From a virus (taxonomy: Duplodnaviria > Heunggongvirae > Uroviricota > Caudoviricetes): DNA of 9,102 nt. Where the stretch lies: IMG/VR virus record IMGVR_UViG_2547132281_000003, positions 1-9,102 of that record. One strand, written 5' to 3'. The position numbers and the translations under genes are program-made. Of this stretch, positions 2,647-9,102 are shown piece after piece (the first letter of the stretch is position 1; every line of letters starts with the position of its first letter). Below the pieces are notes generated by a model. The model had not been told where the DNA came from. It made no database searches and saw only the letters and a list, made by a program, of their open reading frames with translations.

Positions 2647-2654
2647 TTTTCCAC
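2647..2654. repeat. Target-site duplication (left copy), TTTTCCAC
   Basis: The 8 bp immediately left of the GTAAGCG terminus at 2655 are identical to the 8 bp immediately right of the CGCTTAC terminus (5097..5104). An 8-bp duplication is characteristic of the IS66 family. Confidence 0.85.
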
Positions 2655-2680
2655 GTAAGCGTACAGCCTGAACCGTCTGG
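2655..2680. repeat. Left terminal inverted repeat of IS66 copy 2
   Basis: Starts GTAAGCGT; it pairs with the reverse complement of 5071..5096 (GTAAGCGTGCAGCAAGAACCGT...) with a few mismatches. Confidence 0.75.
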
Positions 2681-2746
2681 TCAGAATCTGACAAATTAGA
2701 CAAAGTGGTGTCCACCAAATAAGTAGTGGGAACCAAAGTGTCAGAT

Positions 2747-3127
2747 ATGCAGAAAAATGTGACTCCCGGCAGGCGAAAAGGCTGCCCTAATTATCCTCCC
2801 GAATTTAAACAGCAGCTCGTTGCTGCCTCCTGTGAACCCGGGATATCCATCTCAAAACTTGCTCTTGAAAATGGCATTAACGCCAATCTGTTGTTCAAAT
2901 GGCGACAACAATGGCGCGAGGGAAAGCTGCTATTACCTTCTTCAGAGAGCCCCCAGCTACTTCCTGTGACTCTCGATGCAGCTGCCGAACAGCCAGAATC
3001 GCTCGCAGAGGACCCGGAAACCCTCAGTATCAGCTGTGAGGTAACGTTCCGGCACGGGACGCTCCGCTTCAATGGCAATGTCAGCGAAAAGCTCCTGACT
3101 CTGCTGATACAGGAACTGAAGCGATGA
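2747..3127 (+). CDS. tnpA: IS66-family TnpA (orf1); the ORF track begins at GTG 2726, the first ATG is at 2747
   Basis: Conserved orf1 core (YPPEFKQQLVAASCEPGISISKLALENGINANLLFKWRQQWREGK) parallels the copy 1 orf1. The stop and the tnpB start overlap as ATGA (3124-3127). Confidence 0.8.
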   Translation: MQKNVTPGRRKGCPNYPPEFKQQLVAASCEPGISISKLALENGINANLLFKWRQQWREGKLLLPSSESPQLLPVTLDAAAEQPESLAEDPETLSISCEVTFRHGTLRFNGNVSEKLLTLLIQELKR

Positions 3128-3471
3128 TCCCGTTACCTTCCGGGACCAAAATTTGGCTGGTTGCCGGTATCACCGATATGAGAAATGGCTTCAACGGCCT
3201 GGCTGCGAAAGTACAAACGGCGCTGAAAGACGATCCCATGTCCGGCCATGTTTTCATTTTCCGGGGCCGCAGCGGCAGTCAGGTTAAACTGCTGTGGTCC
3301 ACCGGTGACGGACTGTGCCTCCTGACCAAACGGCTGGAGCGTGGGCGCTTCGCCTGGCCGTCAGCCCGTGATGGCAAAGTGTTCCTTACGCAGGCGCAGC
3401 TGGCGATGCTGCTGGAAGGTATCGACTGGCGACAGCCCAAGCGGTTGCTGACCTCCCTGACCATGCTGTAA
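3124..3471 (+). CDS. tnpB: IS66-family TnpB (orf2), 115 aa
   Basis: Same length as the copy 1 TnpB and similar over most of it ([18 protein letters not shown]...TKRLERGRF), with its ATG in the ATGA overlap with the tnpA stop. Confidence 0.9.
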
Positions 3472-3496
3472 ATCTCTTTATCCTGGTTGTCACAGA

Positions 3497-3522
3497 ATAA
3501 GCCCGGTAAAATACGGGCTTAT
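3497..3522 (+). promoter_or_regulatory. Stem-loop overlapping the tnpC start codon of IS copy 2 (possible translational control)
   Basis: ATAAGCCCG (3497-3505) and CGGGCTTAT (3514-3522) are perfect 9-bp inverted arms around an 8-nt loop. The second arm contains the AT of the tnpC ATG (3521-3523), and no obvious Shine-Dalgarno precedes it. Confidence 0.4.
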
Positions 3523-5059
3523 GAACGACATCTCTTCTGACGACATCTTCCTGCTGAAACAGCGCCTGGCCGAACAGGAAGCGCTGATCCACGCCCTGCA
3601 GGAAAAGCTGAGCAACCGGGAGCGCGAAATAGACCATCTGCAGGCGCAGCTGGATAAACTCCGCCGGATGAACTTCGGCAGTCGTTCCGAAAAAGTCTCC
3701 CGCCGTATCGCACAAATGGAAGCCGATCTGAACCGGCTTCAGAAAGAGAGCGATACGCTGACTGGTAGGGTGTATGACCCGGCTGTACAGCGTCCGTTGC
3801 GTCAGACCCGCACCCGTAAGCCGTTCCCTGAATCACTACCCCGTGACGAAAAGCGACTGTTGCCTGCGGCGCCGTGCTGCCCGAACTGCGGCGGTTCACT
3901 GAGCTATCTGGGCGAGGATACCGCCGAACAGCTGGAGTTGATGCGTAGTGCCTTCCGGGTTATCCGGACGGTACGGGAAAAACATGCCTGTACTCAGTGC
4001 GATGCCATCGTGCAGGCACCTGCACCTTCGCGGCCCATCGAGCGGGGTATCGCCGGACCGGGGCTGCTGGCCCGCGTGCTGACCTCGAAGTATGCAGAGC
4101 ACACCCCGCTGTATCGCCAGTCAGAAATATACGGCCGGCAAGGTGTGGAGCTGAGCCGTTCACTGCTGTCGGGCTGGGTGGATGCATGCTGCCGGCTGCT
4201 GTCTCCGCTGGAAGAGGCGCTTCATGGCTATGTCATGACTGACGGCAAACTCCATGCCGATGATACCCCGGTCCAGGTACTGCTGCCGGGTAATAAGAAG
4301 ACGAAGACCGGGCGGTTGTGGGCGTATGTTCGTGATGACCGCAATGCCGGGTCAGCGTTGGCACCTGCAGTGTGGTTCGCTTACAGCCCGGACAGAAAAG
4401 GCATCCATCCGCAGACTCATCTTGCCTGCTTCAGCGGTGTGCTGCAAGCGGATGCGTACGCCGGGTTCAACGAGCTGTATCGCAATGGTGGGATAACGGA
4501 AGCTGCCTGCTGGGCTCATGCCCGCCGAAAGATCCACGATGTGCACGTCCGCATCCCGTCAGCACTGACGGAAGAAGCCCTGGAGCAGATCGGTCAGTTG
4601 TACGCCATAGAGGCGGATATAAGGGGAATGCCGGCAGAGCAGCGGCTTGCTGAACGTCAGCGAAAAACGAAACCGCTGTTGAAATCCCTGGAAAGCTGGT
4701 TGCGTGAAAAGATGAAAACCCTGTCGCGACACTCAGAACTGGCGAAAGCGTTCGCATACGCCCTGAACCAGTGGCCGGCGCTGACGTACTATGCAGATGA
4801 TGGCTGGGCTGAGGCGGACAATAACATCGCTGAAAATGCGTTGCGGATGGTCAGTCTGGGCCGCAAAAACTACCTGTTCTTCGGTTCGGATCATGGAGGA
4901 GAGCGGGGAGCGCTGCTGTACAGCCTGATCGGGACGTGCAAACTGAACGGAGTGGAGCCAGAAAGCTACCTCCGCTATGTCCTTGACGTCATAGCCGACT
5001 GGCCGATAAACCGGGTCGGCGAACTGCTCCCCTGGCGCGTAGCACTGCCGACTGAATAA
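3521..5059 (+). CDS. tnpC: IS66-family DDE transposase TnpC (orf3), 512 aa
   Basis: Coiled-coil N-terminus, zinc finger (CCPNCGG...CTQCD), and motifs [14 protein letters not shown] and [10 protein letters not shown]. It is collinear with the copy 1 TnpC but clearly divergent from it. Confidence 0.92.
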
Positions 5060-5070
5060 CACATCCCCGT

Positions 5071-5096
5071 CAATACGGTTCTTGCTGCACGCTTAC
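5071..5096. repeat. Right terminal inverted repeat of IS66 copy 2
   Basis: CAATACGGTTCTTGCTGCACGCTTAC; ends with CGCTTAC and is followed directly by the TTTTCCAC duplication. Confidence 0.75.
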
Positions 5097-5104
5097 TTTT
5101 CCAC
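5097..5104. repeat. Target-site duplication (right copy), TTTTCCAC
   Basis: Identical to 2647..2654. Confidence 0.85.
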
Positions 5105-5237: not shown

Positions 5238-5456
5238 TTACATCCACATAATTTGCTGCCCTGACGGCAACGGGTGCGGCCTCACGGCGTGGACTTCTCC
5301 CGGCTTCACGATGTATCGCTGTACCGACTCATAAGTGATGAACGTGGCGCTGCAATTCACGTTCTGGCACTGGTGATAACGCTCTTTTGTCGTGTCAGTG
5401 ATATAGCGACTTGTACGCGCATGTGCGGCATGCTGGCATAAAGGACAATGAAACAT
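5238..5456 (-). CDS. ogr: Ogr/Delta-family zinc-finger late-gene transcriptional activator, 72 aa
   Basis: MFHCPLCQHAAHARTSRYITDTTKERYHQCQNVNCSATF... matches phage P2 Ogr as I remember it, with the four zinc-binding Cys. A GGAAGAGG Shine-Dalgarno precedes the ATG at 5456. The 99-aa ORF in the track (start 5537) is an upstream in-frame extension. Confidence 0.93.
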   Translation of the reverse strand: MFHCPLCQHAAHARTSRYITDTTKERYHQCQNVNCSATFITYESVQRYIVKPGEVHAVRPHPLPSGQQIMWM

Positions 5457-5536
5457 CGCGAGCACCTCTTCCGGTTTTGTTAATGGTGCCATTTTATTTA
5501 ATTTATCCTTATAAAACAAACAGATAAAACAAAGCA
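5457..5536 (-). promoter_or_regulatory. Probable ogr promoter and ribosome-binding region (D-ogr intergenic)
   Basis: AT-rich 80-bp spacer between the D stop and the ogr start, with TTGTTT...TATAAG-like elements on the minus strand. This is a by-eye assignment only. Confidence 0.35.
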
Positions 5537-6700
5537 TTAATCATCATCTTCTGTTTCGTACTCCACATCAGAAAGCCTGACCTCAAGCTCTAAGGACGTC
5601 GTGAAGCCGCTATTATTCAGAAAATGTGTCACCTTAGTGATTGTCCAGTCCTGCTCGTCTATGACGCGCTTAAAGCCTGACACTCTGACCGGTGTTTCCG
5701 TGTAAATATCAGCACGACCAGTGGCAAGGCTGATGGAGAACTCCGCAACGCCCCGTTGCAGTTTATCCCACTTCGCCTGAGCGGCGCGCATGGCCTGCGC
5801 TTTCGTGGCATATACCGTAGTCAGGGCAAAAACGTTGTCAGCCTCACCGGCCATGTATTCACCTTCGCGCGCTTCCGGTACTTTTGGCGCTTTCTTCTGC
5901 GTGACCGGTTTTGCTTTCGGGTGCTCCAGTGCGCGCAGGTGTTTTTCTTTCTTTTTGCGTTTCAGTTTTACCTTCTGCTTTTGTGGTTTCGGGTCTTTGG
6001 TGTGTAACCACTTTGCCGTTACGCCGGTATAGGCTCCACGGTCAGCAATCGCAAAATGATGGCGGTCGCCGTCGCTGCGGGTTATGGTGACCTGCGGGAT
6101 TTTTTTACCGCTGGCCGTCACCCCCTGCCCCGCTTTGAGAAACAACAGTTTTCCCATTTTTACCGAGACCTCACCGCCGTTGCGTTCTGCAAGACGGGTC
6201 AGGAATTTCGCATCAGACTCCTGCGACTGGTCGATGTGCGGGATTTTAATTCCGGCCAGTGACGGAGCGACACTGGCTTCCAGCCTGTTACGGGAGGCTA
6301 TCGCCTCAACAATCGCACCGAGCGTGGTGTCATGCCAGGAGCCTTCCCGGCGGGAATTGAGCGTCCCGCGAAAATCTGCACTCCGGGCGCGGATGGTGAC
6401 CACATCCGGAGCGCCCCGGTGTTCAACCTCATCAACGGTAAATTTCCCTTTGCATACCAGGGCAAAACCTTTCCAGCCGATATAAACCGTCAGGACAGCG
6501 CCACGAACCGGCAGCCCGACCTGCCCGTCGGCATCGTTCAGTTCAATATCAAGCTGGTCAGCCTCAAAGCCCCGGTTATCCGTCAGGGTCATACTCATCA
6601 GACGGTCGCTGATATTGCCGGTAATATCCCTGCTGTCGAGCATCAGCATGTAATCCGGCGTCAGCGTACTGCCTGCATCAAATGTCAGCGCATCCAGCAT
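5537..6700 (-). CDS. D: P2 gpD-like tail protein (late control gene D), 387 aa, apparently full length
   Basis: Length and sequence match P2 gpD as I remember it (MLDALTFDAGSTLTPDYMLMLDSRDITGNISDRLMSMTL...). Its start overlaps the stop of the upstream U-like ORF (TAATG). Confidence 0.92.
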   Translation of the reverse strand: MLDALTFDAGSTLTPDYMLMLDSRDITGNISDRLMSMTLTDNRGFEADQLDIELNDADGQVGLPVRGAVLTVYIGWKGFALVCKGKFTVDEVEHRGAPDVVTIRARSADFRGTLNSRREGSWHDTTLGAIVEAIASRNRLEASVAPSLAGIKIPHIDQSQESDAKFLTRLAERNGGEVSVKMGKLLFLKAGQGVTASGKKIPQVTITRSDGDRHHFAIADRGAYTGVTAKWLHTKDPKPQKQKVKLKRKKKEKHLRALEHPKAKPVTQKKAPKVPEAREGEYMAGEADNVFALTTVYATKAQAMRAAQAKWDKLQRGVAEFSISLATGRADIYTETPVRVSGFKRVIDEQDWTITKVTHFLNNSGFTTSLELEVRLSDVEYETEDDD

Positions 6701-7047
6701 TATCCCGCCCCCGTCATACCCGTGAATCTGGTCGCCATACTGCCAGCCTTACCGATGAGCGATTCCGCCTGTTTACCGATATCGCCATAAAGCGCGGCCA
6801 GTGATTCATCAACGCGGGTGAGTGACAGCGTAAAATCAATTTTCCGGGGTGTGCCGTCTGCAAAGAAAATACTCCCTGTTTCACTCACCCTGCTGATGAC
6901 ATACATGCCGTAAATCATGCCGGTGCCATCCAGCAACGGCCACGCCCGTCCCTCCTCTGCCATCAGCCTGAGCGTGGTCATCGTCAGCTTGCCGCCGGTC
7001 AGTTCGGGATAAAGCACACCGGCCAGCGTCATGTTTTCCTCACCCAC
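6700..7047 (-). CDS. U: P2 gpU-like tail protein, probably N-terminally truncated (possible pseudogene)
   Basis: The C-terminal ~110 aa (TLAGVLYPELTGGKLTMTTLRLMAEEGRAWPLLDGTGMIYG...) resemble gpU. The track start is a GTG at 7047; the first ATG is at 7030-7032. The same frame stays open upstream to a stop at 7108-7110. My recollection is that P2 gpU is about 159 aa, so roughly 25-50 N-terminal residues appear to be missing. Confidence 0.65.
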   Translation of the reverse strand: MGEENMTLAGVLYPELTGGKLTMTTLRLMAEEGRAWPLLDGTGMIYGMYVISRVSETGSIFFADGTPRKIDFTLSLTRVDESLAALYGDIGKQAESLIGKAGSMATRFTGMTGAG

Positions 7048-7637
7048 ACCGAGAAACTGGTAGGCATCCCGTTTGCAGAATATGCCTGCCTCGTGGTCAT
7101 CTGTCCTTTACGGTATTTTTTCCAGTAAAGCGGGGAAATATTGAAAGCACGTGCAGCGCCAGCAACATGACCATAGAGGTGAGCCTGCGCCTCATCCGTA
7201 AACAGCGATTCTTTCTCGCCATGCGCATCCACCCAGGCATCGCTGAGTTCCTCATACATCATGAAAAGCTGCGATGAGATACGGGCGGCAAACTTTTTCA
7301 GCTCCTTGTCATTCATTCCCGGCAGGCGCGCATAGTGGTCACGCTCAGCCAGAACCCCCATCCACAAAAGCCATGCATCACGCTGTTCAACCGGTCGGTT
7401 ATAAAACGCCTCACGTACAGCGCGATTAAACTCAGGAATGAAAACCCATTTTTCACCGGCACGAGCCTTCGGTTTGCAAGGATCACGCAATTCAATAATT
7501 GGTAATTTATTTGCCTTCACCATTTCACTGACAGCTGTCTTTGGCTTCCCTAATAAATCAGCAAATTTATCCACATGAACCGCATCAAGCGGATACTGAA
7601 TCACATAATTTTCAGCGTCCATATATGGTACCCTCAT
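7029..7637 (-). CDS. cox: Cox-like (P2 excisionase / early-promoter repressor family) N-terminal domain fused to a ~100-aa C-terminal extension of unknown origin, 202 aa
   Basis: Residues ~10-97 (YPLDAVHVDKFADLLGKPKTAVSEMVKANKLPIIELRDP...ARAGEKWVFIPEFN...QRDAWLLWMG) parallel P2 Cox (91 aa) as I remember it. Residues ~100-202 have no match I recognise. It is divergent from the C repressor gene, and its TGA overlaps the first ATG of the U fragment as ATGA. Confidence 0.6.
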   Translation of the reverse strand: MRVPYMDAENYVIQYPLDAVHVDKFADLLGKPKTAVSEMVKANKLPIIELRDPCKPKARAGEKWVFIPEFNRAVREAFYNRPVEQRDAWLLWMGVLAERDHYARLPGMNDKELKKFAARISSQLFMMYEELSDAWVDAHGEKESLFTDEAQAHLYGHVAGAARAFNISPLYWKKYRKGQMTTRQAYSANGMPTSFSVWVRKT

Positions 7638-7758
7638 AGGATCCAGCCCTTTCTAAACCACTCAAAACCGTTTAGACGCTGGTTTATTCTCAAATCAATG
7701 GAACCTATATAGGTTCCAGTTTTGAGGGAATTTAGTCCCTATATAGGCACCATGTCAA
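7638..7758. promoter_or_regulatory. Immunity switch region between the divergent cox-like and C genes, with candidate promoters and operators
   Basis: AT-rich 121-bp spacer containing an 18-bp perfect palindrome GGAACCTATATAGGTTCC (7700-7717), a second copy of its CCTATATAGG core (7738-7747), a related CCTCATAGG at the cox start (7632-7640), and a TAAACCA...TGGTTTA inverted pair (7653-7686). Confidence 0.5.
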
Positions 7759-8052
7759 ATGAAATTAAGCGAAAAGATTAAGGCCTTGCGTGAGGCTGAA
7801 GGGCTAAGCCAATCAAAATTCTGTGAAATCATAGAGTTACCGCTAAGCACACTTAAAAAATATGAAGGAGGAAACTTTGAACCCGGTGGCACAGCTTTGC
7901 TAAAAATCACTATGCATCCCACATTCCAAAAATATGCTCTATGGCTTATGACAGATAAAACCGCGCCGGACGCAGGACAAATCGCACCGGCTCTCGCGCA
8001 CATTGGGCCAGAGTCAACAGAGTCCAACCACTCCGCGAAAAGGATTGGCTAA
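7759..8052 (+). CDS. C: P2 C-type immunity repressor (helix-turn-helix), 97 aa
   Basis: LSEKI...LSQ..., the helix-turn-helix region, and the C-terminal ...TPxFxKYxLWxMT...APxxGQIAPALAH... segment match P2 repressor C as I remember it. It lies directly upstream of int, as in P2. Confidence 0.85.
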   Translation: MKLSEKIKALREAEGLSQSKFCEIIELPLSTLKKYEGGNFEPGGTALLKITMHPTFQKYALWLMTDKTAPDAGQIAPALAHIGPESTESNHSAKRIG

Positions 8053-8121
8053 CTCTATATAAAGATTACATTTTCACCATTTGCTACCAAGATGGTGAAT
8101 ACAGCGCCGGAGGGCTTTCTT

Positions 8122-9102
8122 ATGGCAATTAAGAAGCTCGATGATGGTCGCTATGAAGTGGACATTAGACCTCGCGGTCGCGACGGAAAACGCATCCGCA
8201 GGAAATTCGAAAGAAAAGCTGAAGCACTAGCATTTGAGCGATACACAATCGCCAATGCCAGTCAGAAAGAATGGGGAGGCCAGCGAGCAGACCGCCGGAC
8301 TTTGAGTGAGTTGCTGGACATCTGGTGGAAATATCACGGGCAAAACCACGAGCATGGAACAAAAGAGTTTAATCATCTACTCAAAACCATCAGCGGCATA
8401 GGTGATATACCAGTGAGCAGGATGAGCAAAAGGGCTTTGATGGATTATCGTTCCATGCGACTACGTGATGGTATCAGTGCCGCAACGATAAACCGTGACA
8501 TGTACCGATTATCCGGCATGTTCACAAAATTAATTCAATTGGATGAATTTTCCGGGCAACACCCAATTCACGGACTGCCGCCACTGGCGGAGGCCAACCC
8601 TGAAATGACGTTCCTGGAAAAAGCAGAAATCGAAAAACTGTTAAATGTTTTGGCTGGTGATGACTTACTTGTCGCGCTTTTATGTCTGAGCACTGGAGGA
8701 AGATGGACGGAAGTTGCCACGCTAAAACCAGCACAGATTACAAATTGCAGGGTTACCTTCCTGAAAACCAAAAACGGTAAAAAGCGAACCGTGCCGATTT
8801 CTGAGGAACTGGAGAAAAAAGTTAAAGAGGAGGCCAGCGCCAAATTATTCAAAGTTGATTATGAGAAATTTTGCGGGATTTTACGCAGAGTGAAACCTGA
8901 TATACCACCCAATCAGGCAACCCACATCCTGCGGCATACATTCGCAAGCCATTTCATGATGAATGGGGGCAATATAATCGCACTGCAACAGATTCTGGGA
9001 CATGCGAGCATTCAGCAGACGATGGCCTATGCGCACCTTGCGCCTGACTATCTGCAAAATGCCGTCGCTCTGAATCCACTAAAAGGCGGAGTGACGTTAT
9101 AA
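8122..9102 (+). CDS. int: P2-type tyrosine integrase (site-specific recombinase)
   Basis: MAIKKLDDGRYEVDIRP... matches the P2 Int N-terminus as I remember it. The catalytic region has HxLRH and a C-terminal Tyr (ATHILRHTFASHF...QTMAYAHL). A GGAGGG Shine-Dalgarno lies 7 nt upstream of ATG 8122; the track ORF starts 30 nt earlier at 8092. The stop is the last codon of the window. Confidence 0.93.
   Translation: MAIKKLDDGRYEVDIRPRGRDGKRIRRKFERKAEALAFERYTIANASQKEWGGQRADRRTLSELLDIWWKYHGQNHEHGTKEFNHLLKTISGIGDIPVSRMSKRALMDYRSMRLRDGISAATINRDMYRLSGMFTKLIQLDEFSGQHPIHGLPPLAEANPEMTFLEKAEIEKLLNVLAGDDLLVALLCLSTGGRWTEVATLKPAQITNCRVTFLKTKNGKKRTVPISEELEKKVKEEASAKLFKVDYEKFCGILRRVKPDIPPNQATHILRHTFASHFMMNGGNIIALQQILGHASIQQTMAYAHLAPDYLQNAVALNPLKGGVTL

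Follow-up and report, generated by a model that had tools for sequence, protein, structure and literature searches.

The open reading frame that reads on for more than a hundred residues beyond a Cox-type domain is, with high probability, a chimera of three genes, cox, A and U, produced by the decay of a P2-like prophage. It lies within a stretch of 9,102 nucleotides, referred to here as the window, and its composition was established by aligning the DNA with an intact prophage that shares its immunity type and lies between cpxP and fieF (L003, NZ_CP104629.1); this alignment accounts for every base across 7029-7400 save the one at 7355. From the N- to the C-terminus the product consists of Cox codons 1-89, one junction codon, gpA codons 118-210 and 14 codons of U read out of frame, closed by TGA. 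The features of the window are collected in Table 1.

Table 1. Features of the window that bear on the chimeric gene
Feature	Position	Strand	Details
Chimeric open reading frame	7029..7637	minus	202 aa, or 197 aa from ATG 7622
cox-derived part	7356..7637	minus	100% DNA identity to L003; junction alignment
Orphan base, cox-A junction	7355	minus	G here; T in gpA and in cox
gpA (replication endonuclease) fragment	7073..7354	minus	continues the cox frame; codons 117-210 of 759
4-bp microhomology GCAA, A-U junction	7073..7076	minus	window aligned to both parents
U-derived DNA	6700..7076	minus	codon 34/35 to stop; native start and 33 codons missing
Possible U restart codons	ATG 7032 or GTG 7047	minus	in the U fragment; Met50, 110 aa (ATG) or 115 aa (GTG)
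Tail gene D, intact, 387 aa	5537..6700	minus	directly downstream of U fragment
ogr, 72 aa from MFHCPLCQ...	5238..5456	minus	PF04606
Putative C operators, CCTATATAGG repeats	7704-7713 and 7738-7747		from sequence; role by analogy with P2 O1/O2
Pe-like early promoter	7729..7758	minus	-35 TTGACA 7758-7753, -10 TAAATT 7734-7729; 10/12 consensus matches
Immunity repressor C, intact, 97 aa	7759..8052	plus	PHROG 147, E=6e-39; identical to WP_000777029.1
P2-family integrase, intact, 326 aa as annotated in relatives	8122..9102	plus	window ends at stop codon

Composition of the chimeric gene

The first-pass annotation had described a frame of 202 aa with a Cox domain at its N-terminus and an ATGA overlap with a U fragment, all of which we find on the minus strand, and had taken it for a deletion-junction chimera that keeps an intact Cox. 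The mapping of its pieces onto the intact prophage bears out the chimera and a near-complete Cox; the word intact holds for codons 1-89 of 90, and the last residue, Leu90, is lost together with the cox stop codon, with 108 foreign residues in their place. The frame begins with five in-frame codons that precede the cox start and that the annotation of Yersinia phage L-413C counts within cox. The form deposited in databases starts at 7622; an exact look-up of the 202-aa form returned no record, while the 197-aa form is on record.

The 108 residues by which the frame is extended beyond the Cox domain had been regarded as unassignable to any P2 protein and possibly novel. This is no longer tenable: a tblastn search of 50,697 phage records with the chimeric protein aligned its residues 87-188 with gene A of P2 and of many relatives at 94-95% identity (E=1e-55; in P2, nucleotides 28367-28663, inside A at 28034-30319), and both Pfam PF05840 and PHROG 91 agree. 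It is this match, at 95% identity to P2 gpA, that argues against an extension by chance. Residues 95-188 of the frame correspond to gpA residues 117-210, so that 94 of the 108 extension residues are gpA in its native frame, with residue 117 changed from F to V. The suggestion that the extension might be out-of-frame sequence accordingly fails for these 94 residues and stands for the last 14 (NGMPTSFSVWVRKT), which are U DNA misread out of frame.

A nearly complete Cox and its appendage

The window from 7356 to 9102, holding int, C and cox codons 1-89, corresponds to positions 5157-3411 of the intact prophage at 100% identity. Cox codons 1-89 occupy 7356-7622, and residues 6-94 of the chimera equal residues 1-89 of the L-413C-type Cox (NP_839880.1 in Yersinia phage L-413C; WP_001308179.1 in E. 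coli prophages). Profile searches agree. Pfam PF10743 (Cox), whose cut-off is 27.5 bits, scores 80.6 on residues 15-94; PHROG 272 ('Cox-like excisionase and repressor') is matched at E=2.9e-46, and the structure of P2 Cox, PDB 4LHF, on residues 16-95 at E=1.9e-19. In its position, too, the gene is that of a Cox protein: it is the first gene of the early operon, driven by Pe and divergent from C and int. The C-cox-int DNA of L-413C-type phages is 99.3-100% identical to that of the window, and in both cox lies in the same place and direction with respect to C, Pe and int. The difference lies in the length. Members of the family measure about 90 aa and end shortly past helix alpha4, the native protein having 90 aa in RefSeq prophages, or 95 aa in L-413C, where a longer start is annotated; the frame studied here encodes 197-202 aa and runs on into foreign residues where the L-413C-type Cox ends.

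P2 Cox itself, a winged-helix excisionase and repressor that assembles into helical filaments, is homologous to the chimera over residues 16-95 of the latter, but belongs to another immunity type, and it is on the region of oligomerisation that the chimera bears its appendage. The Cox part of the chimera encodes the winged helix and all secondary-structure elements, including alpha3-alpha4. In P2 Cox these two helices drive the helical filament, in which 55% of the protein surface is buried, and removal of the last 20 residues abolishes activity (PMC3936717). By analogy, since alpha3-alpha4 mediate the filament and 108 residues now follow alpha4 directly, the appendage probably hinders filament formation and leaves Cox activity weakened or lost. 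[quoted passage not shown] A single-sequence structure model of the fusion reached a mean pLDDT of 56, that is, low confidence.

Fragments of gpA and U

The gpA fragment, which matches positions 7258-7539 of the intact prophage, is identical at 282 of 282 positions to the A genes of several E. coli prophages. Compared with gpA of P2 (NP_046795.1), a rolling-circle initiator of the HUH type, it shows 95% amino-acid identity, and it matches some E. coli alleles at 100% in DNA, but of the approximately 760 residues of that protein it holds only 94, and the HUH motif, Tyr450/454 and the origin are all missing. In full-length gpA the PF05840 domain spans residues 133-462; in the chimera the profile is matched on residues 111-198 over its positions 1-84 of 321 only (34.8 bits, cut-off 31.4), and PHROG 91, 'nicking at origin of replication', is matched on residues 86-188. 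The HUH motif of full gpA, HWH at residues 399-401, lies beyond the end of the fragment at residue 210 and is deleted here, as is the YxxxY motif (YIAKY) at 450-454, whose Tyr450 and Tyr454 we take to be the active-site tyrosines. The nick site of the P2 origin, at nucleotide 1859 of A (codon 620), falls in a region that is likewise deleted from the window. The fragment contains neither a complete GPA domain nor the origin within A, and we infer that it is incapable of nicking or replicating DNA.

A model of gpA residues 1-338 built on a 15-sequence alignment had a mean pLDDT of 49, and only residues ~130-230, predicted as helical, reached values of 64-80; the fragment, by ending at residue 210, cuts this helical region. 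Across gpA residues 124-197, 38 columns of aligned sequences are invariant. A further alignment, A1, in which Cox and gpA sequences were mixed and their non-homologous N-termini mis-aligned, was excluded from the modelling. The gpA piece would thus seem to be an incomplete fold, and this reading leans mainly on the coverage of the Pfam profile because the structure predictions are of low confidence (mean pLDDT 56 and 49).

Native U has 159 aa in intact relatives, with its own start and a place in the tail operon after T. Here PF06995 is matched over its positions 41-120 of 120, corresponding to the C-terminal two-thirds, and T is gone together with all the upstream tail genes. The TGA of the chimera, at 7029-7031, overlaps an ATG at 7030-7032 that opens a U-frame reading frame of 110 aa; the apparent ATGA coupling is in fact the codon for an internal methionine of U, Met50. 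Upstream of it the U reading frame does remain open for 25 codons, to 7107, as the first-pass annotation had observed (RTDDHEAGIFCKRDAYQFLGVGEEN). Its attribution to the N-terminus of U is correct in part, for KRDAYQFLGVGEEN alone (U residues 35-49); the rest is gpA DNA read in another frame.

Two junctions and two lost blocks

Instead of the single junction that had been supposed, the alignment to the intact prophage reveals two, cox-A and A-U. Sequence of T, Orf78 or B, for which a search of the region 7029-7400 had been suggested, was sought there, and by the same DNA alignment none remains. The cox-A junction is in frame, with the consequence that translation passes from Cox(1-89) on into gpA(117-210), and the A-U junction is out of frame, so that translation stops 14 codons into U DNA. 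At the cox-A junction a GTT is common to both parents, and without base 7355 the join would be a plain GTT-microhomology join. That base turns the TTT codon of gpA Phe117 into GTT (Val). It was considered as a natural allele of gpA and rejected: it occurs in 0 of 872 E. coli genomes that carry this stretch of gpA, and all aligned homologues have F. The orphan base would fit error-prone synthesis at the junction and would fit a later point mutation equally well.

Relative to the intact prophage, the cox-A junction has removed approximately 2.1 kb, from the last cox codon to gpA codon 116 (orf78, B, orf80-83 and the 5' part of A), and the A-U junction approximately 27 kb, beginning with gpA codon 211 and ending with U codon 34. 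The larger block comprises the rest of A with the origin, the cargo genes, and every gene for the head, lysis and the tail as far as U. The most likely scenario is the following: in enterotoxigenic E. coli TW14425, a prophage with an L-413C-type immunity region residing at the cpxP-fieF attachment site would have lost the ~2.1-kb and ~27-kb blocks by illegitimate, microhomology-mediated recombination, either through two successive deletions or in a single complex event of template switching, in which 282 bp of A were copied in between the two break-points. The chimeric gene still lies behind its native Pe, opposite an intact C repressor. Given this promoter and this repressor, it would be silent unless C repression lapses, and once this happens the transcript would also run into 'U and D.

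Immunity region, neighbours and attachment site

The immunity region of the window (C, Pe and cox) is 99.3-99.9% identical to those of Yersinia phage L-413C, the 'P2' from O157:H43 T22, R18C, FSLSP004 and others, and over cox and C there is no match at the DNA level to P2 itself. The switch region contains a perfect 20-bp palindrome, TGGAACCTATATAGGTTCCA, at 7699-7718, and two copies of CCTATATAGG set 34 bp apart, which bracket the -10 element of the Pe-like promoter, a strong promoter of the sigma-70 kind upstream of the chimeric frame. By analogy with P2, these repeats probably serve as operators for the C repressor in this immunity type.

On the other side of the junctions, the window from 7079 down to 5098 corresponds to U (from codon 34), D and ogr and is 97.2% identical to the intact prophage. 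The remnant is therefore a mosaic relative to that reference, int-C-cox and the A pieces being at 100% and U-D-ogr at 97.2%; from these two levels of identity we conclude that the late region of the ancestor came from a different P2-like lineage. The mechanically called ogr frame, 5238-5537, is 99 aa long because an in-frame ATG lies upstream of the real start, the conserved Ogr start being at 5456; the L-413C annotation likewise adopts the long form (300 bp).

Beside the remnant stand two different elements of the IS66 family in tandem, at 1-2617 and 2652-5089, each with tnpA, tnpB and tnpC. The window start truncates the first, an ISCro1-like element that shares 99.8% identity with its counterpart in the intact prophage; around the second, an 8-bp target sequence, TTTTCCAC, is duplicated (2644-2651 and 5090-5097). 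The 34 bases between the two elements (2618-2651, corresponding to 36887-36919 of the intact prophage) are the start of a hypothetical cargo gene of 642 bp, which in the intact prophage lies between ogr and attR and which is absent from phage L-413C. One insertion sequence sits just 5' of the ATG of this gene and the other some 11 codons inside it, a placement implying that the cargo gene is disrupted in TW14425.

Attachment sites had been credited to the remnant. They are found outside the window, where both att cores survive in the source contig. The core of this integrase type measures 47 nt (GACACCATCCCTGTCTTCCCCCACATGATGTGGGGGTTTTTTTTATC) and is located downstream of cpxP; its coordinates are 8358-8404 and 18407-18449 in the source contig (L004) and 1336-1382 in L005. 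The left and right cores share all 47 nt in the intact prophage and 43 nt in the source contig. Repeats of 19 nt (TGTGGACRCTATGTGGACA) that resemble arm-type sites flank the core in attP, and the source contig keeps the core and these repeats on both sides.

Occurrence

The exact 197-aa protein is found in one contig only, AELE01000001.1 (152 kb), of which the window is an exact piece. The corresponding genome record, AELE00000000.1, is listed in a published strain table as the enterotoxigenic isolate TW14425, collected in Guinea-Bissau in 1996 (PMC4309559). Among the 50,697 phage records searched by tblastn, 117 had matches, none of which joins both parts, and no place covers at least 80% of the reading frame. 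By megablast, none of 5,426 complete E. coli genomes has either cox joined to the A fragment or the A fragment joined to U, the best coverage of the two junction-spanning queries being 50% and 56%, in a species that carries a median of 2 P2-like places per genome. Exact 27-mers of both junctions had 0 matches in species-representative genomes, JGI metagenomes and IMG/VR, and the same 27-mers revealed no single-junction intermediate in genome, metagenome or viral contigs. Finally, among 5.8 billion protein clusters, no match extends over more than 61% of the query and none combines both Pfam domains. The chimera is a strain-specific decay product, and selection or function is without support.

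Alternative readings

The reading with most bearing on the behaviour of the remnant is that the chimera is a working Cox, acting as directionality factor, repressor of Pc and activator of P4 PLL, and thereby altering excision of the remnant or cross-talk with satellites. We regard this as possible but rather unlikely. The 89 of 90 codons that survive are identical to those of the Cox of functional phages, nothing is missing from Pe, C or int, the source contig retains both 47-nt att cores together with the arm repeats, and the extreme C-terminus of P2 Cox is disordered; yet a protein that acts as a tightly packed filament would here have to carry 108 residues on its oligomerisation helix, C should hold Pe off, the remnant is still in place, and the fusion is confined to one strain, which gives no sign of its maintenance. 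A related proposal gives the gpA segment a part to play. Upon infection by a related phage, or if C ceased to repress, the fusion would recruit this segment to cox-box DNA or to incoming gpA and serve as a dominant-negative or exclusion factor towards P2-like phages or P4-type satellites, or else as a directionality factor that locks the remnant; we consider it highly improbable. That the protein has acquired a new function outright, for instance as a decoy or dominant-negative gpA segment tethered to DNA by Cox and directed against superinfecting P2-like phages or P4-type satellites, is in our opinion extremely improbable. The conserved helical part of gpA kept in frame (38 invariant columns, pLDDT 64-80) is compatible with it, none of this being direct, but the gpA piece ends within the predicted helical region, one join in three would be in frame by chance, and a single strain in which the sequence shows no divergence from its parents leaves no time for selection to have acted.

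Two further explanations would do away with the chimera as a product of decay. The first-pass annotation had itself pointed out that the arrangement would be native if intact P2-like phages had a Cox of about 200 aa and a U of about 110 aa, and the uninterrupted frame, deposited as a gene product, may at first sight speak for a long Cox variant with a genuine C-terminal domain. Intact relatives, all of them, have a Cox of 90-95 aa, and their U has 159 aa; moreover, the extension is 100% identical in DNA to an internal piece of gene A that normally lies 2.1 kb downstream. A search for a second example of such a long Cox found none in the 50,697 phage records, the 5,426 E. coli genomes and the 5.8 billion protein clusters, and we give this reading practically no credence. 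The other explanation, that the junctions are artefacts of a draft assembly such as a collapsed or mis-joined P2-like prophage, takes its force from the source, a draft whole-genome shotgun contig, and from the several P2-like prophages that a strain often carries. Mis-joins, however, arise at long shared repeats, whereas the joins here lie at microhomologies of 3-4 bp, one of them with an orphan base; the contig measures 152 kb, shows the normal chromosome on either side, from cpxP to fieF, and was found in 2 samples, and many analogous chimeras are present in other assemblies. An artefact is very improbable, and we retain the three-part chimera left by prophage decay.

Related chimeras and P2-like prophage decay

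The search of protein clusters also brought up P0030, P0037, P0039, P0040, P0042 and P0046, almost all singletons, in which the same type of Cox is fused to fragments of distant P2 genes. In P0030 the partner is a virion-morphogenesis fragment (PF05069, S-like), and P0037 is itself a three-part chimera made of Cox, a tail-tube (FII) fragment and the C-terminus of D; P0040 looks by eye like Cox with a C-terminal fragment of the tape-measure protein T, its sole precomputed Pfam match being to Cox. In contrast to the present gene, which keeps 89 of 90 codons, these chimeras are mostly broken inside Cox, at residues 62-74, and none involves gpA. The existence of these other singleton fusions of Cox to late genes indicates that we are dealing with routine prophage decay, and suggests that P2-like prophages repeatedly decay through deletions that begin within cox or directly behind it, downstream of Pe. 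Cryptic P2-like remnants are known from laboratory E. coli, such as the ogrK/yegZ remnant of K-12 and the remnant of E. coli B that gives rise to P2 Hy dis. There, too, large internal deletions have left ogr/D, the immunity-int end, or both, at loci and with break-points that differ from those described here, and we know of no Cox-gpA fusion in the P2-like remnants of K-12 or E. coli B.

As far as annotation is concerned, the appropriate label for the frame is that of a cox::'A'::'U chimeric pseudogene product, and not that of a novel two-domain regulator or an overlong "Cox family DNA-binding protein". If the activity of Cox were kept in spite of the appendage, it could affect excision of the remnant or the activation of P4-like satellites. 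Taken as a whole, the locus offers a clean and datable case of the disarming of a P2-like prophage through microhomology-mediated deletions, which strip the genes for replication, lysis and morphogenesis and spare the immunity repressor, the integrase, the attachment sites, D and ogr.
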